DNA of 64,000 nt. Source: Planctomycetota bacterium. Lineage in GTDB: Bacteria > Planctomycetota > B15-G4. Below, one piece after another: positions 28,497 through 62,057 of the stretch. The stretch's first letter is position 1. Each line of letters begins with the position of its first letter. The notes under the pieces were generated by a model that worked only from the letters and a program-made list of their open reading frames with translations, did no database searches and was not told where the DNA came from. Location of the stretch: positions 301,370 through 365,369 of the forward strand of contig JAJDEP010000003.1 of assembly GCA_029259715.1 (NCBI GenBank), given 5' to 3'. The translations under genes and the position numbers were made by a program.

Positions 28497-28498
28497 AC

Positions 28499-30245: not shown

Positions 30246-30261
30246 CCGCGCTCACGTCGCC

Positions 30262-30786: not shown

Positions 30787-30912
30787 TCCGCCGGTTTCGC
30801 CGCAAATCCGAGGGGCAGGGCTCGGCCAGAAACCCGCTCAAGACCGGGCGACGCTCCCGCCGATGAGGCTTTCAGTCGTTCCTGCCCTGAGATTTGCTGG
30901 AGAACCCGACCG

Positions 30913-40862: not shown

Positions 40863-40887
40863 GAGCAGACCGGAACGGGATCCACCC

Positions 40888-41514: not shown

Positions 41515-41571
41515 CCACGACGTGGGTCCGGCCGGGCCGACGACAACGAGACGCGACGACCGCAGGACGCC

Positions 41572-42876: not shown

Positions 42877-42886
42877 CCGCGTCGCG

Positions 42887-43978: not shown

Positions 43979-43985
43979 GGCCCCG

Positions 43986-44831
43986 TCAGCGGCCGTCGGC
44001 ACTCTCGGGAAGGCGCTGGAACTGCGTCCGCAGGAGACCCGACTCGGCCAACTCCTGCAGGCGTCCTTCGGTCAGCAGGAACAGGTGCATCTTCTCGCCC
44101 GGTTGGCTCGGCACTTCGACCTGCTGCACGGCCACCTTCATCTTGCCGTCGAAGTGCAGTCCCAGCATCTCTTCGAGCTGGCCGATGCTCAGCTGGGGCG
44201 TTCCGGTCATGAAGCGGTCGTCGAGGGAGAGACCGCTGGTGTTCATGGGACTGTGGTTCATCGGGCCGATGCGACCCGAGAGGCTTCCGCCGGAAGCGGG
44301 CGTGCCCTGCGCTCCGTCACCGAAGGCCGGCAGACCCGAGCCTCCGACATCCCGGATCGATGGCGCCGGCCAACCGATGGCCTGGCGATCGCCTTCGGCC
44401 CGGGGCGCCTCGACGACATCGTCGGCGACGAGCGGCAGGTCCGAGAGCGTCCGGGGTCCGGAGCCGCTGCTCTCGAGATTGAGCGTCACCGCCAGGCCGG
44501 CCACGGCCAACACGGCGGCCGCCGCCAACACGCGCGGGAGACGCAAGACGGATGCGCGGGGCGGAACGGCCACGGGGCCGACCTCGCCGGAGCGCACGCG
44601 CGCCATGACGTCCTCGGTGAATCCGTCGAGGATCCCCTCGGGGAGCGGCTCTTCGGCCGCCGCGCGCAGCTGGCCTCGCAGTGATGCCAGCTCGCGAAAC
44701 TCGCGGAAGCAGTTGAGGCAAGCGTGCAGGTGCTCGTCCACGGCGGCCTGGTGGCGCGTGTCGAGATCGCCGCCGGCATGCAGGGGGAGCATCCGAGAAA
44801 CAGTCGTGCAGTCGTATCGCCGGAACATCAT
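43986..44831 (-). CDS. anti-sigma factor, zf-HC2 (RseA/ChrR-like) with single TM
   Basis: 281 aa. N-terminal H-x3-C-x2-C motif (HLHACLNCFREF). Central TM VLAAAAVLAVAGLAV. Immediately downstream of, and co-directional with, the ECF sigma gene. Confidence 0.7.
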   Translation of the reverse strand: MMFRRYDCTTVSRMLPLHAGGDLDTRHQAAVDEHLHACLNCFREFRELASLRGQLRAAAEEPLPEGILDGFTEDVMARVRSGEVGPVAVPPRASVLRLPRVLAAAAVLAVAGLAVTLNLESSGSGPRTLSDLPLVADDVVEAPRAEGDRQAIGWPAPSIRDVGGSGLPAFGDGAQGTPASGGSLSGRIGPMNHSPMNTSGLSLDDRFMTGTPQLSIGQLEEMLGLHFDGKMKVAVQQVEVPSQPGEKMHLFLLTEGRLQELAESGLLRTQFQRLPESADGR

Positions 44832-44838
44832 GGTGCCT

Positions 44839-45474
44839 TCAGGAGCTCAAGGGTGTGTCGGTATTTGTATCGGTCGTGCGTTGCAGTCGGGCCCGGGCTT
44901 CGTTCGCGCGGCGGCTCTCGAGCCGGTCCCAGCTCTCGCGGAATTGCTTGCGAGCAACATGCAGACGCCACCGGACGGTGGCGTGTGAGATCCCGCTGAT
45001 GTCGGAGATCTGCTTGCTCGACAAGCCCTCGAGGTCGCGCAGGGCGAGCACGGTGCGGTACTTCTCGTCGAGGGTGGCCAGCACGGCGCGGACCCGCCCG
45101 GAGAGCTCCCGCTGGGACTCGCGGTATTGGGGCGCGATGTCGTGTCCGCCATCGGCGAGTCCTTCGCGCAGCACCTCGATGTCGACGCCCTTGTGCCGCT
45201 TGTTGCGGCGCAGGTGGTCGATGGCCAGGTTCACCGTGATGCGGTAGAGCCACGTGGTGAAGGCCATCGAGAAGTCGAAGCGCTCGAGCGCGCGCCAGAC
45301 CCGGACGAAGGCTTCCTGGGCGACGTCGCGGGCCGCCTCGGCGTTGCCGACCACCCGGTAGGCGGCCCAGAAGGCGCGTTCCTGATGCCGGCCCACCAAG
45401 GCCGCGAAGGCGTCCTCATCGCCCGTCAGGCACTCACGGATGATCTCGTGGTCTTCTTGACGGGATTGGGACAT
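44839..45474 (-). CDS. ECF (RpoE-like) sigma-70 family factor
   Basis: 211 aa from ATG 45474 (MSQSRQEDHEIIRECLTGDEDAFAALVGRHQERAFWAAYRVVGN...). Region 2 is FVRVWRALERFD. Region 4 HTH is LSSKQISDISGISHATVRWRLHVARKQF. Confidence 0.85.
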   Translation of the reverse strand: MSQSRQEDHEIIRECLTGDEDAFAALVGRHQERAFWAAYRVVGNAEAARDVAQEAFVRVWRALERFDFSMAFTTWLYRITVNLAIDHLRRNKRHKGVDIEVLREGLADGGHDIAPQYRESQRELSGRVRAVLATLDEKYRTVLALRDLEGLSSKQISDISGISHATVRWRLHVARKQFRESWDRLESRRANEARARLQRTTDTNTDTPLSS

Positions 45475-45672
45475 CGAGCCCCCGGCGGGTGCCTGTTGGC
45501 GGCGCAGAGCAAGGTCGGAGGCGGGCATCGCCCCCACCTACGGTAGGAGCCTGATCGCTGATGGGCACCGAGACAACTTTCTTGCCCGGAATCGCCCCGG
45601 GTTCGCCCGATCCGCGAGGCTGCGACCGACCCGGAGGGCTCCAGGAGACACTCGAGGGGGCCTGGAGGCCGC

Positions 45673-46815
45673 TCAGACGCCCGTGAAGCGGCCGATGGCC
45701 CGGTAGCGGGCATGCCGACCGGCCACCAACTCCTCGGGCGTGAGCCCCCCCAACTCGTCGAGGTGACGCTCGATGGCGCTGCCCAGGGTCTCCGCCATGG
45801 CATCCGGATCCCGATGCGCCCCTCCTGCGGGCTCGAGCAGCCGTTCGTCGGCCAGTCCGAGCTCCACCAGGAAGGCCGGATCGAGCCGCAGCGCGATGGC
45901 GGCGTCCTCGGCCCGTGAGCCATCCTTCCAGAGGATCGAAGCGCAGCCCTCGGGAGAGATCACCGAGTAGTACGAGTTCTCGAGCACGATCAGGCGGTCA
46001 CAGACCCCGATCCCCAGAGCACCGCCGCTGCCGCCCTCGCCGATGACGGCGCTCACCACCGGCACCTTCAGGCGCGCCATCTCGAAGATGTTCCACGCGA
46101 TGGCCGAGGCCTGGCCCCGTTCCTCCGCCCCGATCCCGGGGTAGGCCCCGGGCGTGTTGATCAGCGTGATGATGGGCAGACCCAACCGCTCGGCCAGCTT
46201 CATGCAGCGCATGGCCTTGCGGTAGCCCTCGGGATGGGCACAACCCCAGTTGCACGCGATGCGCTCCGCGGTCGACTTGCCCTTGCGATGGGCCACCAGC
46301 ATGACCCGCCGGCCGCTCCGCTGAGAGGTGGCGAAGGCCACCAGGATCGCCCGGTCGTCGGCGTAGTGGCGATCGCCGTGAAGCTCGATGACGTCGTTGA
46401 AGAGCCTCTCGACGTAGTCCCCCGTCACCGGGCGCTCGACGTGCCGGCTGAGTTGCACCCGCTGCCAGACCGTGAGCTGCGACTGCATTTCGGCCAGGGC
46501 CTGGTCGCGCTCGCCGATCAAGGCCGCGATCTCCGGCGTGTCGACCAGCTCGGCCACCGGTTCGGGCAGACTTTCGGCCGCGTCCTTCCGGGCGGCACTC
46601 CCCTTGCCCTTGGCCTTGCCTTTGGCCTTGGAACCCTTCTTGGCCTCCTTGCGAGACTCCTCGGCCTGGACCTTGGCCGCCTTGGTGGCGGCCTCCTCGG
46701 CAGCCTCCCGAGCCTCCGCCCGCAGTCCCTCGATCTTGAGATCGAGTTCCCGCACGGGTCGCTCGAACGCCAGGGCGTTCTTGAGCGGGTCGACCTTGGA
46801 GCGCGACAACGCCAT
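45673..46815 (-). CDS. accA: acetyl-CoA carboxylase carboxyltransferase alpha subunit with Lys/Ala-rich N-terminal insertion
   Basis: 380 aa. AccA core is LAERLGLPIITLINTPGAYPGIGAEERGQ...VIGEGGSGGALGIG. About 55-aa insertion (AKVQAEESRKEAKKGSKAKGKAKGKGSAARKDAAE) after the N-terminal helix. Confidence 0.85.
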   Translation of the reverse strand: MALSRSKVDPLKNALAFERPVRELDLKIEGLRAEAREAAEEAATKAAKVQAEESRKEAKKGSKAKGKAKGKGSAARKDAAESLPEPVAELVDTPEIAALIGERDQALAEMQSQLTVWQRVQLSRHVERPVTGDYVERLFNDVIELHGDRHYADDRAILVAFATSQRSGRRVMLVAHRKGKSTAERIACNWGCAHPEGYRKAMRCMKLAERLGLPIITLINTPGAYPGIGAEERGQASAIAWNIFEMARLKVPVVSAVIGEGGSGGALGIGVCDRLIVLENSYYSVISPEGCASILWKDGSRAEDAAIALRLDPAFLVELGLADERLLEPAGGAHRDPDAMAETLGSAIERHLDELGGLTPEELVAGRHARYRAIGRFTGV

Positions 46816-46966: not shown

Positions 46967-49882
46967 ATGACGCACCAGGCTTTCTGCATCGAGGTCGGCA
47001 TTCGTCCCGACCGCTCTGACGTGCGCGCCGCCCGACTGCTCGCACAGGCCGATGAGGCCGGGCTCACCCTCGGGGGAGACCTGAGCACGGCCACCGGCTA
47101 TTCCCTGCGCCTGGCCGGTGGAGAGGACGACGCTCGACGGCTCGCCCGCGAGGTCCTCGCCGATCCGGTCATGAACACCGTGCGGATCTTCCGCCCCGAG
47201 GACGATCCGCGTCCGTCGGAGGGGCGCCGCATCGAGGTGGTCCGGCGCCCGGGCGTGATGGACCCCGTCTCCCAGAGCGTCGTACGCGCGGCGGCCAGCC
47301 TGGGTCTGACCATCACAGACGTGAGGAGCTGGGACGCCTATCTCGTGCCCGCCTCGACGGCCGACGACGTCGTCGACGAACTCGGCCGCACGCTGTTGGC
47401 CAACACGGCCATCGAAGAGGTGCGCGTCGACCCCGAGCAAGGCATCGCCCCCGTCGCCGAGCTCCCGGACGCGCCCTTTGTCCTGCGCCACGTGCCCCTG
47501 CGCGAGGCGCCTGCCGAGGAACTGCGCCGACTGAGCGAACAAGGTTGCCTGGCCCTCGACGGCGAGGAGATGGCCACCATCCAGGGACACTTCGTCGCGC
47601 TGGGTCGTGATCCCACGGACATCGAGCTCGAGACCATCGCGCAGACCTGGTCCGAGCACTGCAAGCACAAGACGCTCACCGGCCTCGTCGAGTACGAGGG
47701 CGAGACACTCGACAACCTGCTGAAGTCGACCATCGCCCGCGCCACCCACGAGCTCGACCGGGAATTCTGCCGCTCGGTCTTCGTCGACAACGCCGGGGTC
47801 GTGGCCTTCGACGACGAGCACCACCTGACCTACAAGGTCGAGACCCACAACCACCCCTCGGCCATCGAGCCCTACGGCGGCGCGGGGACCGGCATGGGCG
47901 GCGTCCTGCGCGACACCATGGGCACAGGACTCGGGGCGCGCCCCATCGTCTCGACGGACGTCTTCTGTTTCGGCCCCCCGGACCTGCCGCTCGACGCGGT
48001 GCCCAAGGGCTGCCTGCATCCGCGGCGCATCATGCGCGGCGTGGTGTCGGGAGTGCGCGATTACGGCAACCGCATGGGAATACCCACCGCAGCAGGAGCC
48101 CTGTGCTTCGACGAACGCTACGTCGGCAACCCGCTCGTGTACTGCGGCAGCGTCGGCCTGCTGCCCGTCGACCGGCTCGAGAAGGTCACGCTCCCGGGCG
48201 ACCTGATCCTGCTCGCGGGCGGACGCACCGGCCGCGACGGCATCCACGGCGCCACGTTCAGCAGCCTCGAGCTCCATGACGAGAGCGAGACGGTCTCATC
48301 CGGGGCGGTGCAGATCGGCAACGCCATCGAGGAAAAGAAGGTCCTCGACGCCATGCTCACCGCGCGCGACCAGGGACTCTACCGCTGCGTGACCGATTGC
48401 GGCGCCGGCGGACTCTCCTCCGCCGTCGGCGAGATGGGCGAGACCACCGGCGCGCACGTCGTGCTCGACACCGTGCCCCTCAAATACCACGGCCTCACCC
48501 ACGACGAGATCTGGATCTCCGAGGCGCAGGAGCGGATGGTCTACGCCGTCCCGCCCGAGCATCGCGAGGCCATTCTCGCGGTGTTCGCCGCCGAGGACGT
48601 CGAAGCCACCATCATCGGGGAGTTCAACGACAGCGGGCAGCTCACCGCCGAGTTCCACGGCGAACCGGTCATGGACCTGTCCATGCAGTTCCTGCACGAC
48701 GGCCTGCCCCGCCAGACCCGCAAGGCCGTGCGTCGCCGCCGCGACCTGCACGACCCGACACCGCTCGCCGCCGACGATGTCGCGGCCATGCTGCCCGCGC
48801 TGCTCGCCCATCCCAACGTCGCCAGCAAGGCCTGGGTCATCCGCCAATACGATCACGAGGTCCAGGCCGGGTCGGTGGTCAAGCCGCTGGTCGGTCCCGG
48901 GCACGACGGCCCGGGCGACGGCGCCGTGATCGCGCCGGTGCTCGGCTCCCGCCGCGGCTTCGCCCTGGGCTGCGGCATCAACCCGAACCTGGGCGACGTC
49001 GACCCCTACCAGATGGCCTTGCACGCCATCGACGAGGCCATGCGCAACGTCGTCGTGCTCGGCGCCGACCCCGACCAGGTCTCCATCCTCGACAACTTCT
49101 CCTGGGGCAACTGCGAGAAGCCGGAGAATCTCGGCGACCTCGTCGAAGCCTGCCGCGCCTGCTACGACGGCGCCATGGCCTTCCGCACGCCGTTCATCTC
49201 GGGCAAGGACAGCCTGAACAACGACTATCGCGTGGGCAACGAGAGCCGCTCCATCCCGCCCACGCTGCTCATCTCGGCACTTGGCATCGTCCCCGACGTC
49301 GGCAACGCCATGACCATGGACCTCAAGGCGCCCGGGCACGCCCTGCTGCTGGTCGGCGCGACCGGGCCGCACCTCGGTGGCAGCCTGCTGGCGCAACACG
49401 GCGGCGCCCTGGGGCGGACGGTGCCGCCCGTCGACCTCACGGCCGCTCCCGCTGTCCTCGTCGCCATCCACGCATTGATCAACGCCGGCCTGCTGCACGC
49501 CTGCCACGACCTCTCCGAGGGCGGGCTGGCTGTCGCGGCGGCCGAGTGCGCCTTCGCCGGCGACGTGGGCGCCGAGATCGACGCCGCCGCCCTGACCCTC
49601 GACGGGGACGACCTTTCCCTCGGGGCCCGGCTCTTCGGCGAGACGCCCACGCGCTTCCTCATGGAAGTGGACGAGGCGGACCTGCCGGCGGTCACCGCGG
49701 CTCTCGGCGCGATCCCCTGGTCGCGCGTCGGCACGACTACGCCCGACTCCGTCTTCGTCATCCGGGACGGCGACACCGAAGTCGCCCGCTGGCCGCTCAC
49801 CGTGCTCAAGGCCGCCTTCACCGCGACCCTCGACCTCGACCATGAACTCGAGGCGAACAACGGCGCGGGAGACGCGGCATGA
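46967..49882 (+). CDS. purL: phosphoribosylformylglycinamidine synthase subunit PurL with two N-terminal PurS-like domains (PurS-PurS-PurL fusion)
   Basis: 971 aa. PurL core runs from about residue 200 (ELETIAQTWSEHCKHKT...; AIR-synthase-related domains). N-terminal 2 x approx. 85-aa PurS-like modules (ARRLAREVLADPVMNTVRIF; TLLANTAIEEVRVD). Confidence 0.85.
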   Translation: MTHQAFCIEVGIRPDRSDVRAARLLAQADEAGLTLGGDLSTATGYSLRLAGGEDDARRLAREVLADPVMNTVRIFRPEDDPRPSEGRRIEVVRRPGVMDPVSQSVVRAAASLGLTITDVRSWDAYLVPASTADDVVDELGRTLLANTAIEEVRVDPEQGIAPVAELPDAPFVLRHVPLREAPAEELRRLSEQGCLALDGEEMATIQGHFVALGRDPTDIELETIAQTWSEHCKHKTLTGLVEYEGETLDNLLKSTIARATHELDREFCRSVFVDNAGVVAFDDEHHLTYKVETHNHPSAIEPYGGAGTGMGGVLRDTMGTGLGARPIVSTDVFCFGPPDLPLDAVPKGCLHPRRIMRGVVSGVRDYGNRMGIPTAAGALCFDERYVGNPLVYCGSVGLLPVDRLEKVTLPGDLILLAGGRTGRDGIHGATFSSLELHDESETVSSGAVQIGNAIEEKKVLDAMLTARDQGLYRCVTDCGAGGLSSAVGEMGETTGAHVVLDTVPLKYHGLTHDEIWISEAQERMVYAVPPEHREAILAVFAAEDVEATIIGEFNDSGQLTAEFHGEPVMDLSMQFLHDGLPRQTRKAVRRRRDLHDPTPLAADDVAAMLPALLAHPNVASKAWVIRQYDHEVQAGSVVKPLVGPGHDGPGDGAVIAPVLGSRRGFALGCGINPNLGDVDPYQMALHAIDEAMRNVVVLGADPDQVSILDNFSWGNCEKPENLGDLVEACRACYDGAMAFRTPFISGKDSLNNDYRVGNESRSIPPTLLISALGIVPDVGNAMTMDLKAPGHALLLVGATGPHLGGSLLAQHGGALGRTVPPVDLTAAPAVLVAIHALINAGLLHACHDLSEGGLAVAAAECAFAGDVGAEIDAAALTLDGDDLSLGARLFGETPTRFLMEVDEADLPAVTAALGAIPWSRVGTTTPDSVFVIRDGDTEVARWPLTVLKAAFTATLDLDHELEANNGAGDAA

Positions 49883-50676
49883 CCACGCCCTCCGTGCTCG
49901 TCCTGCGCGCCGCCGGCACCAACTGCGACCGCGAGACCGGTTACGCGTTCGAGCTGTTCGGCGCCCGCTCCGAGACCTTCCACATCAACCGTCTGCTGGA
50001 CGACCCGGCGCTGCTCGAGCGCCATCACGTCCTGGCGGTGCCGGGAGGGTTCGCCTACGGCGACGACGTCGGGGCCGGCGCCGTGATGGCCTGTGAGATG
50101 CGCGGCCGCCTGGGCGAGCCGCTGGTCCGCTTCGTCGAGCAGGGCGGGCTCGTGCTCGGCATCTGCAACGGCTTCCAGGTGCTCGTGCGGCTCGGCTTGC
50201 TGCCCGGCCTCAGCGCCCCGCTCGGCGCACGGGAGATGAGCCTGACCGACAACCGCTCGCACAAGTACGAGGACCGCTGGGTCGACCTGTCCGTCACCAG
50301 CCGCCGCTCAGTGTTCGTGGGCGACATCGAGTCACTGCACGTGCCGGTGGCCCACGCCGAGGGCCGCTTGGTGTGCCTCGACGACGATGTCCGGCGTCAG
50401 CTGATCGACGACGACCGCGTGGTCTTCCGCTATGCCGACGAGACGGGCGCCCCCACCCAGGACTATCCCGACAACCCCAACGGCAGCGTCGACGCCATCG
50501 CCGGCCTCACCGACGCCAGCGGACGCGTGCTGGGCCTGATGCCCCACCCCGAGCGGGCGCTGTTCGGCTTCCACGTCCCCACCTGGACCCGGAACCGCAA
50601 CGGCTCGGTCCCCGACCTCGGCCCCGGCGCCGCCCTCTTCCGCAACGCTTGCGACTGGGTGCGCGCCAACCGCTGA
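49879..50676 (+). CDS. purQ: phosphoribosylformylglycinamidine synthase I (glutaminase subunit)
   Basis: 265 aa. Class-I GATase (GICNGFQVL Cys nucleophile, HPE). ATGA overlap with purL. Confidence 0.9.
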   Translation: MTTPSVLVLRAAGTNCDRETGYAFELFGARSETFHINRLLDDPALLERHHVLAVPGGFAYGDDVGAGAVMACEMRGRLGEPLVRFVEQGGLVLGICNGFQVLVRLGLLPGLSAPLGAREMSLTDNRSHKYEDRWVDLSVTSRRSVFVGDIESLHVPVAHAEGRLVCLDDDVRRQLIDDDRVVFRYADETGAPTQDYPDNPNGSVDAIAGLTDASGRVLGLMPHPERALFGFHVPTWTRNRNGSVPDLGPGAALFRNACDWVRANR

Positions 50677-50682
50677 CGGCCG

Positions 50683-51822
50683 TCAGCCGCAGCAGTGCTC
50701 GATGGCGTCGGCGTAGAACGCCACGCCCTGCTCGAGTTCATCGAAGCCGATGGACTCGTCGACGGTGTGCGCCTGCTCGATGGCTCCCGGCCCGCAGACG
50801 ATGGTGGGCAACGAGAGCCCGTCCCGATAGAGCTCCGCCTCGGTGTAGAACGACACGAGCCCTCCGGTGAGTCCCGTGCGCGCCGTCGCCCACGTCACGA
50901 ACGCATCGGAGTCGGACTGGTCGAACGCCGGCAGGGCCCGGGGCCAGTCGAGGCGACCCTCCACGCCGTCGCAACCGGCACAGGCCCGCTCGAGACACGC
51001 CTGCACCGCACGGCGCAACGCCTCGTGGTCGGTGCCGGGCACCGGCCGCCACTCGAGGCTGACCCGCGAACGATCGGGCACCATGTTGGTCCCGAGGCCC
51101 GACGTCACCAGTCCCGTGTTGAGCGTCGTGCACGGTGGATCGTGCCGACTCCCCGCCGGGGCCTCGACCCGCAACTGTTCGCGCAGGGCGTGCAGCTCCA
51201 CCAGCAAGCGGCCCAGGGCCACCGAGGTGTCCGCGCCATCCCAGGGGTTGCTGCTGTGGGCCGGGGCCCCGCCCAGGTCGATCCAGGCGACGGCGTAGCC
51301 CTTGTGACCCACGATGGGTCGCAGCCCCGTCGGCTCCCCCACGATGCACACGCCCCCCGTCAGGTCGCCGAGAGCCCGGTTGTCCGCCGTGAGCTGCAGC
51401 GCGCCGTGACAGCCGATCTCCTCGGCGTAGGTAAAGGCCAGCACGAGCGGGCGCTTCAGCGTCTCGCAGCATGCCGCCGCCGCCTCGATCTGGGCGGACA
51501 GCGGCCCCTTCATGTCGCATGCTCCGCGGCCGAAGAGACGCCGCCCGTCGCGCTCGGGCTGCGTGGTGGCGCGAAAGTCCTGCTGCCAGGGGACGGTGTC
51601 GACGTGCCCGGCCAGCAGCAGGCCCGCCGGCCCGGCCCCGCCGAAACGCGCCACGAGATTGTGCTGCGCGAGCCCGTCGAGTTCGGCCGACTGGACGGCC
51701 ACGTCGGCCCCCAGCGCCCGCAGCTCCTCGCGCAGCAGGTCGACGGCCGGCCCGGTCGAGCACCCCGGCGCCGTGTCGACGGCGACCAGTCGCTCGGTGC
51801 GTGTCACGACGTCGCGAGCCAT
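50683..51822 (-). CDS. M20 family metallo-hydrolase (acetylornithine deacetylase ArgE-like)
   Basis: 379 aa. M20 metal ligands (AGHVDTV, GACDMKG, EEIGCHG). Confidence 0.75.
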   Translation of the reverse strand: MARDVVTRTERLVAVDTAPGCSTGPAVDLLREELRALGADVAVQSAELDGLAQHNLVARFGGAGPAGLLLAGHVDTVPWQQDFRATTQPERDGRRLFGRGACDMKGPLSAQIEAAAACCETLKRPLVLAFTYAEEIGCHGALQLTADNRALGDLTGGVCIVGEPTGLRPIVGHKGYAVAWIDLGGAPAHSSNPWDGADTSVALGRLLVELHALREQLRVEAPAGSRHDPPCTTLNTGLVTSGLGTNMVPDRSRVSLEWRPVPGTDHEALRRAVQACLERACAGCDGVEGRLDWPRALPAFDQSDSDAFVTWATARTGLTGGLVSFYTEAELYRDGLSLPTIVCGPGAIEQAHTVDESIGFDELEQGVAFYADAIEHCCG

Positions 51823-51956: not shown

Positions 51957-53083
51957 CTACTTCATGACCTGGCTGATGGCGAACATCGGCATGATCAGAC
52001 TCGAGACGATCAGCGCGACGACGGCGCCCATCAGGATGGTCATGGTCGGTTCGATGGTCGCGACGAACGCCTTGATGGCCGACTCGACCTTCTTCTCGTG
52101 GTGATGGCTGATCTTGCCCAGCACCTCGGGCAGCGTTCCCGAGCGCTCACCGAGGGACAGCATGGCGGTCTCGGCCGGCGGGACCAGCGGGTTGTCGACC
52201 AGACTCGCCGACAGGTCGCCGCCATTCTGGACGTCCTCGCGCGAACGCGACCACAGCTTGCGGTACTCGTTGTTGCCCGAGACCGCCGACGCGATCTGCA
52301 GCGCCTCGAGGACGTTCAGGCCGGCGTTCAGCATCACGCCGAGCACGTGGAAGGCCCGCGACAGGGCGACCGCCCGGATCAGACCGCCGAAGGCAGGCAC
52401 CTTGAGCACCACGGGGTCGCAGATCTCGCGCCCCTTCTGCGAGCGCAACGTCAGGAAAAGCGTCGCGAACGTGCCGAGCGCCGCGGGCGCCAGCCAGGCA
52501 CCGTGCTCGATCATGAAGTCCGAGAGGGCCATGAAGAATTTGGTCGGGCCGGGCAGCTTGCTCGGGTCCTTCTCGAACAGCACGGCGAACTTCGGGAACA
52601 CGTTGACGAGCAGGAAGATCACCACGCCGACGGCGAGGACGGCCATGAAGGCCGGGTAGGCCATCGCGCCCTTCACCTTCTTGCGGGTGCTGATGTCGCG
52701 CTCCATGAACTCGGCAACCTTGCCGAGCATGTTGCCGAGGTCGCCGGTCATCTCGCCGGCGCGCACGAGCGCCAAGGCCACCGGAGAGAACGCCCAGCTG
52801 TGATAGGACATCGCCACCGAAAGGGGCTTGCCCTCCTCGACGTTGTGCCGGATGTTGCCAACGAATCGCGCCAGGTGCGGCGTGCCCGACTGCTTCTCGA
52901 GCACTTCGAGCGCGGCCGAGAGGTTCAGGCCCGTGTCGAACATGATCGAGAGCTGCGTCACGACCTCGAGGATCTGCTGCGGCGGCACCTGCATCTTCTT
53001 GACCGCCAGGTCCATGCGCTGCTTCAGGTCTGCAAAGGCGGACGCCCGGTGCTCCGGCGCAACGGCTTCTTCGGCTGCCATGT

Positions 53084-53087
<4 letters not shown>
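51957..53087 (-). CDS. type II secretion / type IV pilus inner-membrane platform protein (GspF/PilC family)
   Basis: 376 aa. Two GspF repeats (ALSYPAF/AMAYPAFMAV..., LxxAGxxxGxL motifs VRAGEMTGDLGNML and SLGERSGTLPEVL). ATGA overlap with the ATPase gene. Confidence 0.85.
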
Positions 53088-54792
<1,705 letters not shown>

Positions 54793-54796
<4 letters not shown>

Positions 54797-55197
54797 GCCT
54801 TGTCCTCGCTCGAGGCCGGATCGGTGTCGCCGTCCGCGGCCGGGTCCGTCGGAGCCAGCGCTTCGACCGCGTCCTTGGCGGCACCCGGCTTGGACCCCTT
54901 CGCCGTGGGCATCGGCGCCTGCTCCGCGATCTCGAGGCGCTCCTGGAGACCCGTGATGGAAAGCGCCGTCATCAGCACCTCGGACGGCTCGATGATCAGG
55001 AACGACAGCCCGCGCGTCTTGGCGAGCTCGTTGAACTCGAGCAGCCCTTCGAGGCTCTGGCTGTCGAACTCGACGACCCGCGAGGCATCCATCTGGATGG
55101 ACGTCACACCGCGACTGATTTGTTCGGAGATGGTGGCCGCGAGGTCGGTGATGACACCGTGGGCCAGACTTCTCCCTCCTTCGATGCGTTGAATCAT
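54793..55197 (-). CDS. STAS-domain protein (anti-sigma-factor-antagonist fold) embedded in the secretion operon
   Basis: 134 aa. The approx. 100-aa core (VVEFDSQSLEGLLEFNELAKTRGLSFLIIEPSEVLMTALSITGLQERLEIAE) is STAS-like, with a C-terminal acidic tail. 4-bp overlap with the ATPase start. Confidence 0.65.
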
Positions 55198-55211
55198 GGT
55201 TCCCCCGAAGT

Positions 55212-56840
55212 TCAGCGGCCGCCGTTCATGGCGTCACGTGCGTCGATGGCCGCGTCGATCTCCATCGACAGCTCGATCAGTCCTTCGTGGAGCGGATCGA
55301 GGATCATGGCGCGGTCGGCCAGCAGGCGGGCCTCGCCGGCCTGCCCCGCCGCCAGGGCGGTGACCGCATCGCGCATCAGGTTGGTGGCGTAGACCGTGCG
55401 CGAGAGCGGACCGAAGGTCTCGCGGAACTCGGCCTGGTCGCGCTCGTGTTCATCGACGATCTCGGCACCGGTCTGGCCGTTGCTGTTGGAGTGCATGCGG
55501 CCGTGCTCGAGGATGTGCGGAGTGAGCACGATCACGATCTCGCGCCGCAGGACCGCGGTCTTCTCGGACTTGAACAGGTACTCGAGGCCGGGCAGGTAAC
55601 CGAGGATCGGGACCCGCGACGTCGTGTTCACGTCGGACGTCTCGATCAGACCGCCGATGACCACCGTCTCGCCGTCGCGGACCATGACGTTGGTGGTGAC
55701 CTCCGCCGTGGTCTCCGAGGGCAGGCCGGTGTTGACGTCGACCTTGCCATCGCTGCGCTCGGGGTGGATCTCGAGGCGCACGAAACCGTCATCGCCGATG
55801 AAGGGCCGGAAGCGCAGCTGGGTGCCGGTCTCCAGGAACTCGACCGTCTGCTGGCTGATGCCGTCGCTGACCGTCGTGCCACCGAAGTAGCCCAGGCGAC
55901 CGCCGATGATGATCTCGGCGCGCTGCTTGTTGAGCGCCAGCACCTTGGTGTTGGCCAGGACGTTGGTGTCGACGATGCTCTGCAGCGCCTCGATGAAGAT
56001 CGAGACCTTGCTGCCGATGTAGCCGATGCGCAGGCCGTCACTGGTCGGGTCGGTGAAGCCGGACTGCGATCCCGTGTAGGTCGTGCTCGGCGCCAGGCTG
56101 GTCCCTGAGAAGACGTCCTTGGTGGCGTCCAAGCTCGAGAAGTTCGAGAACTGGGCGTTGGCCAGCAGGTTGAAGTCGACGCCCCACTTGTTGGTCTCGT
56201 CGAGGGTGACCTCGAGGATGGTGGCTTCGACCAGCACCTGCCGCGGCATGACGTCGAAGTCGGCGACCAGGCGGATCATGGTGTCGACCACGTCCTGGTT
56301 GTCGATGATCAGCAGGGTCTCCTGCCCCGTCGAGTTGTCGCCGCCGGCTTCGTCACCGCCACTGGGGATGCCGACGCCGGACTGCTCGGAGATGACGATG
56401 CGGCCGTTGGCCGACAGCATCGGCAACATGAAGGCTTCGAGCTCTCGGGCCGTGCGGTAGTTCGGCCGGAAGATGTGCTCGGTGAGCGGACGCTCGAGCA
56501 GGTCGAGGTCGTCGATGCTGAAGATCATGTAGACCTTCCCATCGAACGTCCAACCGTAGCCCAGCGGGGTCAGGCACCAGTCGAGGGCTTCCTCGAGCGT
56601 GGCGTCGTAGAAGTTCGCCGTCACGGACGAGTTCGTATCGACGCCGGCGACGATATTGACCCGCTCCGAGACGGAGAGCAGTTCAAGCACGTTGCTGAGC
56701 GGCTCGTTCCGGACATTGAGGGTGATCCCTTCGTCACCATCCTGATCGTCGAAGGCGACGGCCGGGACAGCGGTGGAAAGAACCAGCAGTGCGATAAGGC
56801 AAGAGCGAAGCATGGGCTTGGGTCCGGCGGAGGCGGTCAA
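55212..56840 (-). CDS. secretin (GspD/PilQ family) outer-membrane channel
   Basis: 542 aa. Signal peptide, N0/N1-like domains, secretin core (VLANTKVLALNKQRAEIIIGGRLGYFGG...VPILGYLPGLEYLFKSEKTAVLRREIVIVLTPHIL). About 90-aa C-terminal helical extension. Confidence 0.9.
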   Translation of the reverse strand: MTASAGPKPMLRSCLIALLVLSTAVPAVAFDDQDGDEGITLNVRNEPLSNVLELLSVSERVNIVAGVDTNSSVTANFYDATLEEALDWCLTPLGYGWTFDGKVYMIFSIDDLDLLERPLTEHIFRPNYRTARELEAFMLPMLSANGRIVISEQSGVGIPSGGDEAGGDNSTGQETLLIIDNQDVVDTMIRLVADFDVMPRQVLVEATILEVTLDETNKWGVDFNLLANAQFSNFSSLDATKDVFSGTSLAPSTTYTGSQSGFTDPTSDGLRIGYIGSKVSIFIEALQSIVDTNVLANTKVLALNKQRAEIIIGGRLGYFGGTTVSDGISQQTVEFLETGTQLRFRPFIGDDGFVRLEIHPERSDGKVDVNTGLPSETTAEVTTNVMVRDGETVVIGGLIETSDVNTTSRVPILGYLPGLEYLFKSEKTAVLRREIVIVLTPHILEHGRMHSNSNGQTGAEIVDEHERDQAEFRETFGPLSRTVYATNLMRDAVTALAAGQAGEARLLADRAMILDPLHEGLIELSMEIDAAIDARDAMNGGR

Positions 56841-57580
56841 TGGCTATCGACTTCGGCCGTGGGGCCGCTTGAGAGGGTGAACGGATCGGCGAACAGAGCG
56901 TCGGCCTGTAGCGCATCCGGAATCATGGTGTCGGTGTCATGCACGCCGTCCGGGAGGATGTCCCCGACCACGGGCGGTGAGTCGATGCGGCCATACAGGA
57001 CCGGCATCTCTACGGTGTGGATGTCCTGGCTGGGCGAGCGCAGCACGATGGTGCGCTCACGGATCTCCTCCAGGTTCCAGCCCTGGATCGAGTCCCCCAC
57101 GAAGTGCATGCGGCCATCGATGACGGCCACCGGGAGACGCTGGGAAGCGAGCGTGGCCGAGAGGTTGATCGACGGCGGTTGCAGCTTGACGTCGATCTCC
57201 TGCACCTCCGTCGGCGTGCTCCAGAACGCAGAGAACGGGTCGCTCTCGAGCTCGGCTCCGTCTTCGGTCCCTCCTTCGGAGTCGTCGTCGGCTCCGAATT
57301 CGGCGAGGGGGCGACTGAGGACCGGGTTGGCCTCGATGACGACGGGGACGAGGTCCACGCCGCTGCTCTCGGTGGCATCCTCGGTCATGGCCTGGGCGAC
57401 CCCGCTCTTGGGCTGGGCCACGATGGGCGTCTCGTCGCTGCTGAACTGCGAGGAGATCACGAGACCCAGGACGGCGGTGAGGCTGCCCAGCACGATCAGC
57501 TGACGGCGCTGCTTCTTGCCAGCCTTCACCCTCAGCTGTTCGCTGATCGAACCCGGCTTGTCCTTCTCGGCAGTCTTCAA
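56837..57580 (-). CDS. PilP/GspC-like secretin-interacting protein (single TM)
   Basis: About 248 aa. Start uncertain: TTG 57580 overlaps the upstream stop; ATG 57673 would overlap by 97 bp. TM is LIVLGSLTAVLGLVISS, followed by an acidic linker. C-terminal block PVAVIDGRMHFVGDSIQGWNLEEIRERTIVLR resembles the PilP/GspC HR domain. Confidence 0.55.
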   Translation of the reverse strand: MKTAEKDKPGSISEQLRVKAGKKQRRQLIVLGSLTAVLGLVISSQFSSDETPIVAQPKSGVAQAMTEDATESSGVDLVPVVIEANPVLSRPLAEFGADDDSEGGTEDGAELESDPFSAFWSTPTEVQEIDVKLQPPSINLSATLASQRLPVAVIDGRMHFVGDSIQGWNLEEIRERTIVLRSPSQDIHTVEMPVLYGRIDSPPVVGDILPDGVHDTDTMIPDALQADALFADPFTLSSGPTAEVDSH

Positions 57581-58101
57581 GACTCGGCCTCCAACATCAC
57601 GGCGATCTGCAAGTTGATTCGGCGTTGCTCGGCGCCCTGCTCGACCTTGAGCTGGAGCAAGCGCGTGACCCACGGCATGCCTTCCAGCGCCGTGAGGAAC
57701 TCGAGCAAGGACGAGGCGTTGCCTTCCACGACCAGATCGATCGCGCGGAAGGGGAAGCGCCCGCTCCGGTTCGTGGAGCCGCTGTCCATGCGCACACTGA
57801 CCAGGCCGGTGTCGATGACGTGCTCGAGCACGAGCGTCTCGACGCCTTGCAGGGCTTCGGGCGTGTCCGGGCAGAGCCGCTGCGCACGATTCGCGCTCTG
57901 CTCCCGGACCTCGAGGACCTGCTGGTGCAGCTCCTGCACCTGGAGCTGCACAGCCTCGTCGGCGACGCGCTGGCTGTTGAGCAGGTGCACCTCATCCTCG
58001 AGGGAGGTCACGCTCCCCTGGATCGGATAGAGGACGCCGGACGAGGCGATGATCAGACCCACGCCGATGAGGGCGATGGTGGTTGAGGCCTTGGACTTCA
58101 T
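57577..58101 (-). CDS. PilO/GspM-like inner-membrane assembly protein
   Basis: 174 aa. N-terminal TM, then a coiled coil (LEDEVHLLNSQRVADEAVQLQVQELHQQVLE), then a ferredoxin-like C-domain. ATGA overlap with the upstream gene. Confidence 0.6.
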   Translation of the reverse strand: MKSKASTTIALIGVGLIIASSGVLYPIQGSVTSLEDEVHLLNSQRVADEAVQLQVQELHQQVLEVREQSANRAQRLCPDTPEALQGVETLVLEHVIDTGLVSVRMDSGSTNRSGRFPFRAIDLVVEGNASSLLEFLTALEGMPWVTRLLQLKVEQGAEQRRINLQIAVMLEAES

Positions 58102-59477
58102 CAGCGGGTCTCCGCGCGGGCGTAGATGCGGAAGCGTTCGCCCTCGGTGCCCACCCCGATGAGGACGCGCTCACTCGCCTCGACCTGCACGTTCGAGAAC
58201 GCCTGCGTGACCAGCAGGTCGTCGGCGAACTTGCGCACGGCCAGGTTGTCGGCAGCGATGCCGTGGATGCGGACATCGAGGTTGCGCGCGACCGGCTCGT
58301 TCGGGTCGACCACGGCATCCTTGTCGAGGATCGCCTTCTCCTCGTCCGCGATGTGGATCGACTCGATCATGATCGAGCCGGCGGCATGGTTGGCGATGAT
58401 CGAGAACAGCGTCGACATGCGGTGGCCGGGATAGGCGAGGTTGATCACCTTCTCGTTGGCCTTCTCCTTGTCGAGCTCAGCCTGCAGGTTCGCCAGCTCG
58501 ACCTTCGCGACGGCGAGGATGGTGAGCTGGTTCTGGAGGTCGGACTTCTTCGTCTCGAGGTCGCCGGCCTTGCGCGACCCGGTCACGCCGGCGAGGACCA
58601 CGATGAGCGCCGCGGCGGCCGTCATGGTGACGCCGTACTTGCGCACCTTGCGCTTCTGCCGCATGACCCGTTCTTCGGGCGGCGTGAAGTCGACGAGGGC
58701 CCGACCGTCCGTGGCCAGGCCCAGCCCGATGCAGTCGTCGCAGGCCGCCGGGGCGACATCGACGCGGATGCCGATCGACTCGGCATAGACCTTGCGGTCG
58801 TCCTCGTCGACGCTGACGGTCTCGAGCACGTCGAGATCGCTGCCGCCGATGGCGCCGAGCGCCCGCGAGATGGTCGCCTTGAGTTCGGGTCCCGAGACAG
58901 GGGACGGGACGATGCGCGCGAAGAGCAACTTCTCGTCGCGGCCGGCCAGGATCATGTCCCCGTCACCGGAGCGGATCAGCCGTACGTGCAGGCCTTCACC
59001 GGGCCACGCCCGCCAGGCCGACAGCGTGCCGCATTCGACCGCCTCGACGTCGAGCTGCATCTCGCGGCAGACGGCGACGACATCCGTGAGGCGCTGCTTG
59101 TCGATCGCGGCCATGACCACGAGTGAAGGTCCGGGCGTGGCCCGGGTCCCTGATACTGCCGACTCCGCAGAGAACCCCATCGTCGCCTTCTCGGCATTGA
59201 AGACGGGGTCGCCCTTGAGGCGGTCAGTGCAGATGGCGCGGGCCGACTTGGACCCGGGCGGAACCGTGAGTGACTCGATCAGGACCGACTTGCCTTCGAG
59301 GCCGACGCGCACCTGCTTGCCCACGAAGGGAGCGGAGGAGAGCAGCTGCCGGACGCTCTTCTTGAAGTTGTCGTCGATCGAGACCGCCGAGGCGACGACC
59401 TTGCCGTCCACCATCTGCACGGCACGGAGCTGTCCGTCCGCCACTACGAGTCCGATGTTTCCGGATTTCCTCTTCAA
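58101..59477 (-). CDS. PilM-PilN fusion (GspL-like) inner-membrane assembly protein
   Basis: 458 aa. N-terminal approx. 270-aa actin-like PilM/GspL cytoplasmic domain, TM (VTMTAAAALIVVLAGV), coiled coil, and PilN-like periplasmic domain. Confidence 0.65.
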   Translation of the reverse strand: MKRKSGNIGLVVADGQLRAVQMVDGKVVASAVSIDDNFKKSVRQLLSSAPFVGKQVRVGLEGKSVLIESLTVPPGSKSARAICTDRLKGDPVFNAEKATMGFSAESAVSGTRATPGPSLVVMAAIDKQRLTDVVAVCREMQLDVEAVECGTLSAWRAWPGEGLHVRLIRSGDGDMILAGRDEKLLFARIVPSPVSGPELKATISRALGAIGGSDLDVLETVSVDEDDRKVYAESIGIRVDVAPAACDDCIGLGLATDGRALVDFTPPEERVMRQKRKVRKYGVTMTAAAALIVVLAGVTGSRKAGDLETKKSDLQNQLTILAVAKVELANLQAELDKEKANEKVINLAYPGHRMSTLFSIIANHAAGSIMIESIHIADEEKAILDKDAVVDPNEPVARNLDVRIHGIAADNLAVRKFADDLLVTQAFSNVQVEASERVLIGVGTEGERFRIYARAETR

Positions 59478-59520: not shown

Positions 59521-60021
59521 CTACTCGATCCCTATCGGCACTTCCGTGAACCGAGCCGTAGCCGTATCGATGGTCAGCCGACGGAGGTCTCCATTGGCGG
59601 AGACGTCCATGATTCCCCCATTCGTCAGCACCCCCTTCTCGTTGAAGGCGAGGGTGGGGCGGTTGGGGAAGGCGGCCGAGACCAGGTCCAGCCCCGTGGG
59701 CTGGCCCGGGTGCTTGATGCGGATCACGTAGTCGCCGTGGCTGAGCGGGTCCTCGACCGGAGTGCCCGTCTTGTCCACGACGGCGAAGTACTCCTTGGCG
59801 ACGTGCATCTTGACGCCGAAGGGCTCACCCCGGTGGTAGGCCAGGGACTTCGCGTGGTTGACCGCGTCCTGCAGCTGGATCTGGAGCGTGTCGAGCTTGC
59901 GCTTGGTGCTCAGACCCGAGCTCGGCATCGCGATGGCCGTGAGCATGGCCATGATCGCCATGACGACGAGCAGCTCGAGGATCGAGAACCCAGCACGGGA
60001 GTCGCGTCGGGAGACGTTCAT
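59521..60021 (-). CDS. GspH-like minor pseudopilin, copy 2
   Basis: 166 aa from ATG 60021 (MNVSRRDSRAG|FSILELLVVMAIMAML). The start overlaps the stop of the upstream gene by 1 nt (TAATGA). Confidence 0.75.
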   Translation of the reverse strand: MNVSRRDSRAGFSILELLVVMAIMAMLTAIAMPSSGLSTKRKLDTLQIQLQDAVNHAKSLAYHRGEPFGVKMHVAKEYFAVVDKTGTPVEDPLSHGDYVIRIKHPGQPTGLDLVSAAFPNRPTLAFNEKGVLTNGGIMDVSANGDLRRLTIDTATARFTEVPIGIE

Positions 60022-61046
60022 TACTCGCCTCCGCCAACGACGACATCGGCGTCGAACGCATCCATGGCGTCGTACTCGGCGTCCGTCACGTCCTCGAAGG
60101 GGAAGGACAACGTGCGCACCGACTCGGCGCCGCACTCGACCTGTTCACTCCAGGACTGCAGCCCGCGACCGTGGCCGGGGCGACGGATGCCGCTGCCGAA
60201 GACAGGCTCCTCGGTGGACACGGCCAGGCCGCGCACGGCGCCGCGTCCGGGGACCTCGAACTCCTCGGCCATGACCATGCCGCGCACCTCGACCCGTGAA
60301 GACGAGTCGGCGATGAAGCGCAGGTCAGGTGCCGCCACGGCGACGTCCGGGATGTCGGTTCCGGCCAGCAGACGCAGCCCGCCGTACACCTGCACCTTGG
60401 GACGGTTGGCACCAAGCTGCGGCGCGTTGCTGTTGCACAGTCCGGCGCGGGTGATGATGGTGCCGCGCAAGACGACGTCATCGAGGGTCAGCTCAGCGCC
60501 GGCCTCGAGCAGGAACAGTCCGGCCAGCTGGGTGTCCGTGTAGGTCACAGAGCCGCTGATGATCGTCAGGTTGCCGGCGAGGAGCACCGCATCGCCGACG
60601 TCGCAGCGCAGGCGGTTGCGTTGACCCTGGGTGTCGCCGCTGGGATCGACGCGTCCACGGGCGCGGAGGTTGGCTTCATCGGCCACATCCGAGCCGTTGC
60701 CGCGGGCATGGACCCGCAGGCGACGTTCGTCGTGGTCGATGATCTCGCGCTCGCTGGTCACGATCTCACCGGAGGCCGTCTCCACGGTGTCCTCGCCACC
60801 GTCGCTGACGGTTGTGGGGAGGTGTCCCTCGCGCATCCGGTCACGGGTGCGCTCGAGTCCCGAGCGGCTGGCCTCTTCGGCCGGGCTCGCGCCCGATGCG
60901 AACTCGAGGCTGCGCTTGGCGAGGACCGCGTGGCGGGCGTAGGTGACCGTCACGGAGACCACGATCGCGGAGAGGACGAGGGTGGCCATGAGGACCCACC
61001 CGCCTTGTCGGGAGTCGCGGCGTTGCTTGTGTCTTTGAGAGTTCAT
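60021..61046 (-). CDS. GspK/PilX-like minor pseudopilin, family C copy 3
   Basis: 341 aa. QGG|WVLMATLVLSAIVVSVTVTY (no E+5). RRPGHGRGLQSW matches the family-C DRPG..R.W motif. Confidence 0.7.
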   Translation of the reverse strand: MNSQRHKQRRDSRQGGWVLMATLVLSAIVVSVTVTYARHAVLAKRSLEFASGASPAEEASRSGLERTRDRMREGHLPTTVSDGGEDTVETASGEIVTSEREIIDHDERRLRVHARGNGSDVADEANLRARGRVDPSGDTQGQRNRLRCDVGDAVLLAGNLTIISGSVTYTDTQLAGLFLLEAGAELTLDDVVLRGTIITRAGLCNSNAPQLGANRPKVQVYGGLRLLAGTDIPDVAVAAPDLRFIADSSSRVEVRGMVMAEEFEVPGRGAVRGLAVSTEEPVFGSGIRRPGHGRGLQSWSEQVECGAESVRTLSFPFEDVTDAEYDAMDAFDADVVVGGGE

Positions 61047-61082: not shown

Positions 61083-61613
61083 CTAGCCTTCGGTCTCGGC
61101 GGGGTCGGTCATCCACCACGTGTGGACGCCGACCTCGTTCAGGTCCTTGAAAATCGTCACTTCGAGTTCCACTAGGTAGTTGCCCTCGAACTCGTCGGCG
61201 TCGACCTCGATGCTCGGGTCGGCGGCGTCCACCGTGCGCACGACCACCACCTGCTCCCAGGTGGGATGCGACACGATGACTTCGTACTCGGCCGAACGCG
61301 GAGGCTGGTACTCGGTCTCGTCGAGATCCCAGAGCGTGTGGACGGAGTCGCCGTACTGCGGCTCCGAGTCCTCGGGCGCCGACCACGGCAACAGCACCGC
61401 TGCCTCGTGGATCTCCTGCGCGAGCATCAAGGCCTCATGCGGGCCTTCCGCGAAGAAGTGGTAGACCTCCGTGGAACGCGCCAGCGAGGCCGTTGAAGCG
61501 ACCAAGGTGGAGCCCACGACGAGGGTCGCGAGCATGAGTTCCGCGAAGCTCGCACCCTGGGTGCGACGGCGACGTGCCGTGTTCGCGACGGGCTTGTTGC
61601 TGGAATGGATCAT
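61083..61613 (-). CDS. minor pseudopilin-like protein, family B copy 3
   Basis: 176 aa from ATG 61613 (MIHSSNKPVANTARRRRTQG|ASFAELMLATLVVG). AQEIHEAAVLLP, DLD...PP, C-terminal HTWWMTDP. The upstream 71-codon R/P-rich extension was rejected as non-coding. Confidence 0.7.
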   Translation of the reverse strand: MIHSSNKPVANTARRRRTQGASFAELMLATLVVGSTLVASTASLARSTEVYHFFAEGPHEALMLAQEIHEAAVLLPWSAPEDSEPQYGDSVHTLWDLDETEYQPPRSAEYEVIVSHPTWEQVVVVRTVDAADPSIEVDADEFEGNYLVELEVTIFKDLNEVGVHTWWMTDPAETEG

Positions 61614-62057
61614 GGTGAGTCGTTTCGAATCCGTATGTCGGGCGTCGCTGCTTTCGCGTCGCGGACTCCGCGGCAGCTCCCGGTGTGTCGGGATCAACCG
61701 GGGGTGACTTGAAGCACCGGCGGGGTCCCGCGAGATCGGTGCCCGGGCGCCGCAGCGATTCACCCTTCCGGCCGGCCGGGGCCATCGGCTGCGGGATGGC
61801 AGCTGGCTGAGCGGGCACCGACGCAAGTCCTTCGAATCAGCTGTCCCGGGCCGCCCTGGCGCCCCTTTCCCACCCGTCCAGGCGATTCCTCAGGGTCTGC
61901 CCGTGGATTCCCGACAAGGAAAGGGTCCAATCCGGATGTCGACAGGGGCGTTGCTCGACTATCCACGGGCTATCCACGGCCACGGGCGCTGACGCCAATC
62001 CGTGCCAGAAGTCGCCAGAGCCCCTCGTCCAAGGACGATTACGCCGACCCGAGACAC

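Follow-up and report, generated by a model that had tools for sequence, protein, structure and literature searches.

Introduction

A precedent for the control of an ATPase by a STAS protein is provided by MlaB, the STAS subunit of the lipid transporter MlaFEDB. This "minimalist" STAS protein is needed for the stability and assembly of its ABC ATPase, MlaF, and its interface with MlaF is centred on residue Thr52; the phosphomimetic T52E substitution weakens this binding (PMC7367683). HsbA, a STAS protein of Pseudomonas aeruginosa, binds in its phosphorylated form the diguanylate cyclase HsbD (PMC5085249). The GspE/PilB-family motor ATPases of type II secretion systems (T2SS) and type IV pili (T4P) have their own described cofactors, among them PilZ-FimX, CpiA and phage-encoded inhibitors (reviewed in PMC11656802), and cyclic diguanosine monophosphate (c-di-GMP) acts on their MshEN domain (PMC5013675). 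Here we analyse a 134-residue STAS protein whose gene lies immediately 5' of such an ATPase gene in a stretch of 64,000 nucleotides from a Planctomycetota bacterium (assembly GCA_029259715.1, contig JAJDEP010000003.1, positions 301,370 to 365,369; hereafter the window). In our judgement the chances are about even that this minimal STAS protein serves as a dedicated accessory regulator of the motor ATPase, of the GspE/PilB family, in a type IV filament machine of the Planctomycetota.

Results

The STAS gene (54793..55197, minus strand) starts with ATG and sits between the gene of a secretin (55212..56840) and that of the assembly ATPase (53084..54796), both on the same strand. A 14-nt spacer separates the secretin stop from the STAS start and contains a putative Shine-Dalgarno-like motif, GGGGGA, 3 nt 5' of the ATG (55201..55206). 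The codon-position GC of the reading frame (0.65/0.47/0.84) is the coding pattern of the genes of this window, the GC content of which is 69%. At its other end, the TGA stop of the STAS gene and the ATG start of the ATPase gene share the tetranucleotide ATGA (54793..54796), a 4-bp overlap which indicates that translation of the two genes is coupled. A preliminary description of this locus had claimed both the secretin-STAS-ATPase order and the overlap, and it was correct in each detail, positions 54796-54793 of the minus strand reading ATGA.

To what extent is this arrangement conserved? While a word-index search returned four relatives only, an exhaustive HMMER search over 1.84 billion representatives yielded 13 clusters with E < 1e-10 and a few fragments with values up to about 5e-10, followed by a gap and then by generic STAS proteins (E values from 1e-7 upwards). 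Judged by these profile scores, the window-type STAS proteins are a rare, tight family. We assembled 33 in-clade loci, comprising one Planctomycetota metagenome-assembled genome, nine loci reached by exact-protein look-ups and 23 from a metagenome scan in which an alignment of 12 full-length family sequences served as the query. When these were searched by tblastn with the window proteins, the secretin gene was followed in all 33 by the STAS and ATPase genes, and these by the genes for GspF and an M20 peptidase, as far as the respective contigs extend. Identity to the window protein ranges from 46 to 70% for the STAS protein, and is thus comparable to that of most secretins (51-64%) and of the ATPase (48-78%); the STAS gene is therefore under purifying selection. 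Its stop codon lies at most 4 nt from the ATPase start in 26 of the 30 loci in which both ends are available (at -4 nt in 14, -1 in 7 and +1 in 5), the distance being 32-38 nt in the other four. With a STAS gene present in 33/33 in-clade operons and also in 5/5 more distant Planctomycetota operons, which are described below, the gene proved to be a fixed component of the operon and not a stray insertion, the outcome that the preliminary description had named as fatal to its proposal.

Assignment of this protein to the STAS domain is marginal when judged from sequence alone. It scores 24.1 bits against the Pfam family STAS_2 (PF13466; gathering threshold 29.2) and 21.9 bits against STAS (PF01740; 22.6), both sub-threshold, and 18.2 bits against the anti-sigma-factor antagonist model TIGR00377, where the cut-off is 53.45; a profile of the family matches the solved STAS proteins TM1442 and TM1081 with E values of 0.009-0.015 only. 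Its close homologues P0002-P0004 do have precomputed Pfam STAS matches. The fold evidence, on the other hand, is firm. The AlphaFold2 model has a predicted local distance difference test (pLDDT) score of 88-93 for residues 1-90, and the best 50 Foldseek matches to this model in the PDB are all STAS domains with a probability of 1.00, including those of SulP and SLC26 proteins, RsbV, SpoIIAA, RsbS, TM1442 and MlaB, the chains of the latter at 22-26% identity. The best of them reach template modelling scores, normalised to the target, of up to 0.71 with root mean square deviations of 2.0-2.9 Å. In addition, hhalign matches the window-type profile to the canonical STAS proteins of the more distant operons with 95.6% probability. 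The original proposal of a STAS fold hence holds, and residues 1-93 (54919..55197, minus strand) are predicted to form a minimal STAS domain. In the model, with a pLDDT of about 90 over this core, strands span residues 2-6, 33-37, 65-69 and 89-91, residues 10-11 form a bridge, and helices span residues 13-21 plus 23-28, 46-61 and 73-82; the C-terminal helix is absent. Residues 94-134 (54796..54918, minus strand) make up a Pro/Ala/Asp-rich tail that is predicted to be disordered (pLDDT 40-52) and is not conserved: the homologues are 96-158 residues long, and the stretch beyond about residue 93 differs among them and is in many cases almost missing.

The preliminary description also proposed that an alignment be inspected for a conserved phosphorylatable Ser/Thr, and this residue was found. 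In an alignment to TM1442, Asp45-Ser46 fall on the DS of the motif MDSAGL, which is the phospho-serine position, and Ser46 lies at the N-terminus of helix 2, where proteins of the SpoIIAA/RsbV type have their phosphorylated serine. Together with the preceding phenylalanine (Phe44-Asp45-Ser46, codons at 55060..55068, minus strand), both residues are unchanged in 31/31 distinct in-clade sequences, and the Asp-Ser pair recurs in 5/5 of the more distant operons. Also invariant among the 31 sequences are Met1, Arg4, Gly8, Leu11, Leu19, Gly30, Leu49, Arg62, Ala78 and Thr82, and an alignment of 12 full-length proteins (A4) contains 15 invariant columns. The polar residues Asp45, Ser46, Glu50, Arg62, Ser72 and Thr82 are all invariant or almost so. 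Moreover, the N-terminus MIQRVEAGR (residues 1-9; 55170-55197, minus strand) is almost invariant, Met1, Arg4 and Gly8 being found in 31/31 sequences; such conservation is unusual for a first STAS strand, and this segment may be part of an interface.

Outside the clade of the window, homologues of the ATPase fall into tiers. Those of the clade itself share at least 60% identity, a second tier stands at 54-55%, and a broad third one at about 50% includes Phycisphaerae, Gimesia, Pirellulales and Schlesneria. From these we took five outgroup loci, a small sample which, like all of our sampling, lies within the Planctomycetota: L034 and L035 from the 54-55% tier, L036 (Phycisphaerae), L037 (Gimesia) and L038 (on a 3.5-Mb contig). 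In 5/5 of these sister operons, a STAS gene encoding 111-116 residues directly precedes the orthologous MshEN-T2SSE ATPase gene. Between the secretin and STAS genes, however, the sister operons hold additional genes that the window clade lacks, namely those for a histidine kinase (5/5, with PAS domains in four), a receiver-only response regulator (5/5), a TPR protein (4/5, the exception being L038) and a c-di-GMP enzyme (3/5; GAF-HD-GYP in L036, GGDEF in L037 and GAF-GGDEF in L038). The sister operons resemble type IVa pilus systems, and L037 has a PilT-like ATPase after PilB. Their STAS proteins are canonical and score above the Pfam thresholds, with a full N-terminal hairpin, a DSxGL motif (DSKAM in L035) and a C-terminal helix; identity between the window-type and sister-type proteins is 17-23%, with the Asp-Ser pair invariant in both groups.

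The genes for ACCA, an ECF sigma factor, a zf-HC2 anti-sigma factor, RlmN and ClpX flank the operon both in the window (39519-46815) and in L034/L035 (13740-19713); in the window, the stretch from GspF to ACCA additionally holds, as an insertion, the genes for PurL, PurQ and the M20 peptidase (46967-51822). By this gene order the window operon and those of L034/L035 are positionally orthologous. None of the TPR, kinase, receiver and GGDEF/HD-GYP genes occurs in the operon of the window clade, while the STAS gene has been kept. The simplest history that these gene contents suggest is that the genes for the TPR protein, the kinase and the receiver were deleted in the lineage of the window, where the STAS gene was kept in a trimmed form, tightly joined to the ATPase gene.

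The ATPase itself appears to have changed in parallel. The c-di-GMP-binding motif in its MshEN domain (the N-terminal 70 residues) is degenerate in the window, motif I having lost its RLG and its terminal Q, and a motif scan of nine in-clade ATPases found eight that match neither the strict nor the relaxed published MshEN pattern; the ninth, that of L008, fits the relaxed one at its motif II. In the outgroup ATPases the first motif is near-canonical, as in the RLGDLLVNRGYLTHEQLEFALAEQ of L038, and 3/5 pass the relaxed pattern. Loss of the sensory and c-di-GMP genes from the operon thus accompanies decay of the putative c-di-GMP site of the ATPase, with the STAS protein staying in place.

The preliminary description raised the possibility that the STAS protein links secretion to a signalling cascade. 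The kinase and receiver genes (5/5) and the GGDEF/HD-GYP genes (3/5) that precede STAS in the sister operons speak for such a link, but the part of the proposal that concerned partner switching fared worse. Neither an RsbW/SpoIIAB-type kinase (HATPase_c_2) nor a SpoIIE/PP2C phosphatase, the two components whose search had been recommended, was detected when about 49 proteins of the 64-kb window were scanned with Pfam, or among the Pfam-listed genes of the 38 loci with their flanks of 4-10 kb. Classical partner switching is thus left with no local evidence. Signalling genes of other kinds do occur in the window, all of them distant from the secretion operon: a 907-residue protein (7900-10623, plus strand) in which a Hanks-type Ser/Thr kinase is fused, at the C-terminal side, to an FGE-sulfatase domain similar to formylglycine-generating enzyme, an ECF sigma factor gene divergent from it (7070-7849, minus strand), a second ECF sigma factor (44839-45537) and the zf-HC2 anti-sigma factor (43986-44831). 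The latter pair (43986-45537) was considered as a target of the STAS protein and rejected, as this anti-sigma factor is not of the kinase type and the pair is absent around L036-L038.

A Rosetta-stone search with a profile of a STAS+MshEN chimera found one fusion only. P0250, a metagenome protein from ENA (441 residues, on a 17-kb contig), joins a STAS domain (residues 36-122) to an MshEN region with good RLG...Q motifs and to the first 100 residues of T2SSE, and is a candidate for a natural STAS-ATPase fusion, though as such weak evidence, an assembly artefact being possible. A second protein, P0295, covered 96% of the query and was discarded as a fusion because it consists of repeated MshEN-like motifs with DUF4388 and not STAS.

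The operon as a whole is densely packed and runs on the minus strand from 61826 to 51957, with ten open reading frames (ORFs) annotated with Pfam and NCBIfam. It opens with an ORF of 247 residues with a pilin-like hydrophobic N-terminus (61083-61826), followed by a conserved protein of 341 residues with an N-terminal hydrophobic segment and no Pfam match or assigned family (60021..61046), at the position of which a gene for 331-346 residues is found in L001, L003, L008 and L010. Next comes a GspH-like minor pseudopilin with a prepilin-type N-methylation motif (59521..60135; N_methyl 6.8e-07, GspH 0.0019), the actual start of which is probably internal to the listed ORF. The assembly platform is represented by a GspL-like protein of 458 residues, resembling a fused PilM/PilN (58101..59477), which has a weak C-terminal PilN match, is conserved in the loci and has a counterpart with PilM_2 in L034 and L035. 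The GspM/PilO-like protein of 174 residues (57577..58101) has no Pfam match and is assigned by position and size only; its gene is kept in place across the loci, and PilO/T2SSM_b is annotated at its counterpart in L036 and L037. The 278-residue product of the following gene (56837..57673), conserved in position, is a GspB/GspC/PilP-like candidate by virtue of a T2SSB match of 20.3 bits, under the Pfam cut-off. The secretin, of 542 residues (Pfam Secretin 8.4e-39, STN 2.3e-08, with an NCBIfam match), carries an STN domain and is extended at its C-terminus by about 100 residues. The ATPase has 570 residues and an MshEN-type N-terminus (T2SSE 1.6e-138, MshEN 3.2e-19), and its stop overlaps by 4 bp the start of the GspF/PilC platform protein (51957..53087; 376 residues, T2SSF 4.4e-58, NCBIfam GspF 289 bits).

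The T2SS/T4P label given to this operon in the preliminary description can be kept only as a compound, its T2SS half being uncertain in view of the type IVa pilus-like sister operons. The ATPase scores 599.8 against the NCBIfam GspE model (cut-off 630.25) and 589.1 against PilB (675), and hence below both; GspF (289.2 vs 424) and GspD (181.5 vs 351.35) likewise stay under their equivalog cut-offs, and the PilB, PilC and PilQ models give similar scores that are also under theirs. Because ATPase, platform protein and secretin fall short of both the Gsp and the Pil equivalogs, the machine is, on these scores, best called a T2SS/T4P-like type IV filament system.

Three further observations may be recorded here. 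A 44-residue segment within the C-terminal extension of the secretin (residues about 441-542; 55212-55520, minus strand) resembles the TPR protein of L037 with 32% identity and E = 1.5e-4, a weak likeness with a value that comes from a four-sequence comparison; the extension may be a fused remnant of the TPR gene that directly follows the secretin gene in L037. About 25 kb away from the operon, a cluster on the plus strand (21866-31389) contains five genes with prepilin N-methylation motifs (434, 498, 158, 174 and 158 residues) among proteins without Pfam matches, and these may encode pilins or pseudopilins for the machine. Finally, two unusual Rieske fusions occur in the window: a protein of 540 residues (2296-3918, plus strand) with an N-terminal Rieske [2Fe-2S] domain and a glutamate-synthase/FMN-dehydrogenase-like domain, and a 632-residue ORF of uncertain start (75-1973, minus strand) that combines a ferric-reductase-like membrane domain with a Rieske domain.

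Discussion

We propose that the STAS protein would be co-produced with the ATPase by virtue of translational coupling and would bind it directly, most likely at its N-terminal MshEN/N1 region. The binding face would consist of the loop between strand 3 and helix 2 with Phe44-Asp45-Ser46, the N-terminus of helix 2, and the loop between strand 4 and helix 3 (Pro71-Ser72); in the STAS complexes known so far, the face that contacts the partner is made up of the loops on which such invariant polar residues lie. By analogy to MlaB and MlaF, binding could then control the stability of the motor, the assembly of its hexamer or its docking on the GspL/GspF platform. Ancestrally, the STAS protein would have been the last element of a sensory module encoded in the operon, made up of the TPR protein, the PAS histidine kinase, the receiver and a diguanylate cyclase or phosphodiesterase, and it would have relayed the input of this module to a c-di-GMP-binding ATPase. 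In the window lineage the sensory genes would have been deleted and the c-di-GMP motif would have decayed with the STAS protein retained. Where the operon is still complete, the STAS protein may, in addition, pass on signals from the kinase, the receiver or c-di-GMP. If the STAS protein did survive the loss of the sensory module, its obligatory partner would therefore be a core component of the machine.

What the data show directly is the fold, the invariant serine, the constant gene position and coupling, the survival of the STAS gene after the module was lost and the lack of a kinase or phosphatase gene nearby. Binding to the ATPase and an effect on its activity, including the gating suggested in the preliminary description, are what we infer from these, while Ser46 may or may not be phosphorylated. 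A dedicated regulator of the ATPase seems to us the most economical reading of the stop/start overlap, the adjacency in all Planctomycetota lineages sampled, the retention of the gene and its invariant polar residues taken together. However, several points weigh against it. Gene adjacency and coupling show co-expression and not binding. The partner could be another retained component, such as the GspL-like protein or GspF, instead of the ATPase. Orthology of the STAS proteins of the window and sister operons, at 17-23% identity, rests on position and on the profile match, and the fusion P0250 is a single metagenomic ORF, the last 30 or so residues of which look frameshifted with respect to the window ATPase. 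Finally, the invariant Asp-Ser pair would fit just as well with phospho-regulation of the classical kind, the kinase gene lying at another place in the genome.

The last point leads to the first alternative, namely that the protein is an anti-sigma-factor antagonist engaged in classical partner switching, in which an RsbW/SpoIIAB-type kinase would phosphorylate Ser46 and a PP2C phosphatase would remove the phosphate, the genes of both enzymes lying elsewhere; the operon position would then merely tie the dose of the STAS protein to expression of the machine, and the output would be transcriptional. Besides the invariant Asp-Ser at the canonical phospho-site, this would be in keeping with the presence of RsbV, SpoIIAA and TM1442 among the closest solved structures and with the full-length sister proteins, which are of the canonical DSxGL type and above the Pfam thresholds. 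We nevertheless consider it unlikely, given that neither enzyme was found in the 64-kb window or in the 38 loci, that the TIGR00377 score stays under the cut-off (18.2 vs 53.45) and that the anti-sigma factor nearby is of the zf-HC2 type and not a kinase. Moreover, constant adjacency to one ATPase gene, with a stop/start overlap, across several deep Planctomycetota lineages is hard to square with a purely transcriptional role.

Alternatively, the STAS protein could be a second-messenger adaptor in the manner of HsbA and HsbD, the partner being a diguanylate cyclase, a phosphodiesterase or a receiver; in the window clade such enzymes would be encoded elsewhere, or the GspL-like protein or GspF would take their place. 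Apart from the HsbA precedent itself (PMC5085249), the gene order of the sister operons agrees with this, since the STAS gene comes directly after the GGDEF gene in L037 and L038, after the GAF-HD-GYP gene in L036 and after the receiver gene in L034 and L035. On the other hand, a cyclase or phosphodiesterase is missing from L034, L035 and the entire window clade, while the STAS gene is always beside that of the ATPase, and with the c-di-GMP motif of the ATPase degenerate in the window clade, a c-di-GMP relay is unlikely to be the function retained there. All in all, we find this explanation rather improbable. A third possibility is that the gene has been left over from the lost sensory module, hitch-hiking or decaying, and now plays no part in the machine. 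The trimmed form of the protein (short N-terminal hairpin, no C-terminal helix, variable tail) and its sub-threshold Pfam scores could be taken to imply this. It is disfavoured as highly improbable, however, by a reading frame that is intact in 31 distinct sequences (46-70% identical to that of the window), the 15 invariant columns of alignment A4, the strongly conserved MIQRVEAGR, the maintained stop/start overlap, the confident fold prediction and the fact that neither a dN/dS close to 1 nor frequent loss within the clade is seen.

Returning to a STAS regulator dedicated to the motor ATPase, a fuller formulation, which we put forward tentatively and would not call probable, is that PilB/GspE has the STAS protein as a stoichiometric subunit, possibly phosphorylated on serine, and that this subunit represents an unrecognised class of motor regulator, which ancestrally relayed the input of a module of kinase, receiver and c-di-GMP enzyme and which was left as the sole regulator in the window lineage once the module and the c-di-GMP site had been lost. 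What is new here is that a known domain, STAS, is linked to a known machine in a manner that is conserved and, as it seems, obligatory. Full-text searches, which covered part of the literature, returned no description of a STAS gene in T2SS/T4P-like operons, and the terms "STAS", "anti-sigma" and "Planctomyc" are absent from the text of the 2024 review of PilB cofactors (PMC11656802). The protein cofactors known for PilB (PilZ/FimX, CpiA and phage peptides) come from a few proteobacterial models. An ATPase-coupled STAS partner kept across several deep Planctomycetota lineages would, if true, amount to a new regulatory principle, extend the MlaB precedent from ABC transporters to secretion ATPases and offer a handle on the regulation of surface appendages in this phylum, the cell biology of which is unusual. 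Operons of the reduced and of the full type provide a natural comparison by which the core function of the STAS protein could be separated from its sensory input.

How, then, does this protein compare with the systems described so far? With the PilB/GspE cofactors it would share the property of being a small protein or ligand acting on an extension ATPase, often via the N-terminal domain of the latter, although none of those cofactors has a STAS fold. The position of the STAS gene after a GGDEF gene in L037 and L038, behind a kinase and a receiver, is reminiscent of the HptB-HsbR-HsbA-HsbD logic (PMC5085249); in contrast to HsbA, which is controlled by HsbR (receiver-PP2C-kinase), no HsbR-like protein is found here and the operon of the window clade has no cyclase. 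SpoIIAA and RsbV share the STAS fold with the window protein, and the serine of its conserved Asp-Ser pair, where helix 2 begins, aligns with the one that is phosphorylated in them. They differ in that the window protein has a shortened N-terminal hairpin and no helix 4, in that its gene is coupled to that of a secretion/pilus ATPase with no cognate kinase/anti-sigma factor or PP2C nearby, and in that it stays under the TIGR00377 cut-off. The window protein is thus a member of the STAS superfamily by fold, for which both tests of the anti-sigma-antagonist family, the TIGR00377 score and a local kinase or phosphatase, came out negative.

Mechanistically, the comparison with MlaB goes furthest. 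The window protein is not a member of the MlaB family, its sequence similarity being at the general level of the STAS superfamily only and its operon containing no Mla genes, and its putative partner is a hexameric GspE/PilB ATPase (T2SSE/MshEN) instead of an ABC nucleotide-binding domain; the comparison is therefore meant as one of mechanism only. Both, nonetheless, are single-domain STAS proteins of about 95 residues with four strands, three helices and no C-terminal helix; in both, the Ser/Thr of the phospho-site is conserved without a known dedicated kinase; and the gene of each lies in the operon of the machine that it serves, or would serve, with the same adjacency of STAS and ATPase genes recurring here in 38 loci.

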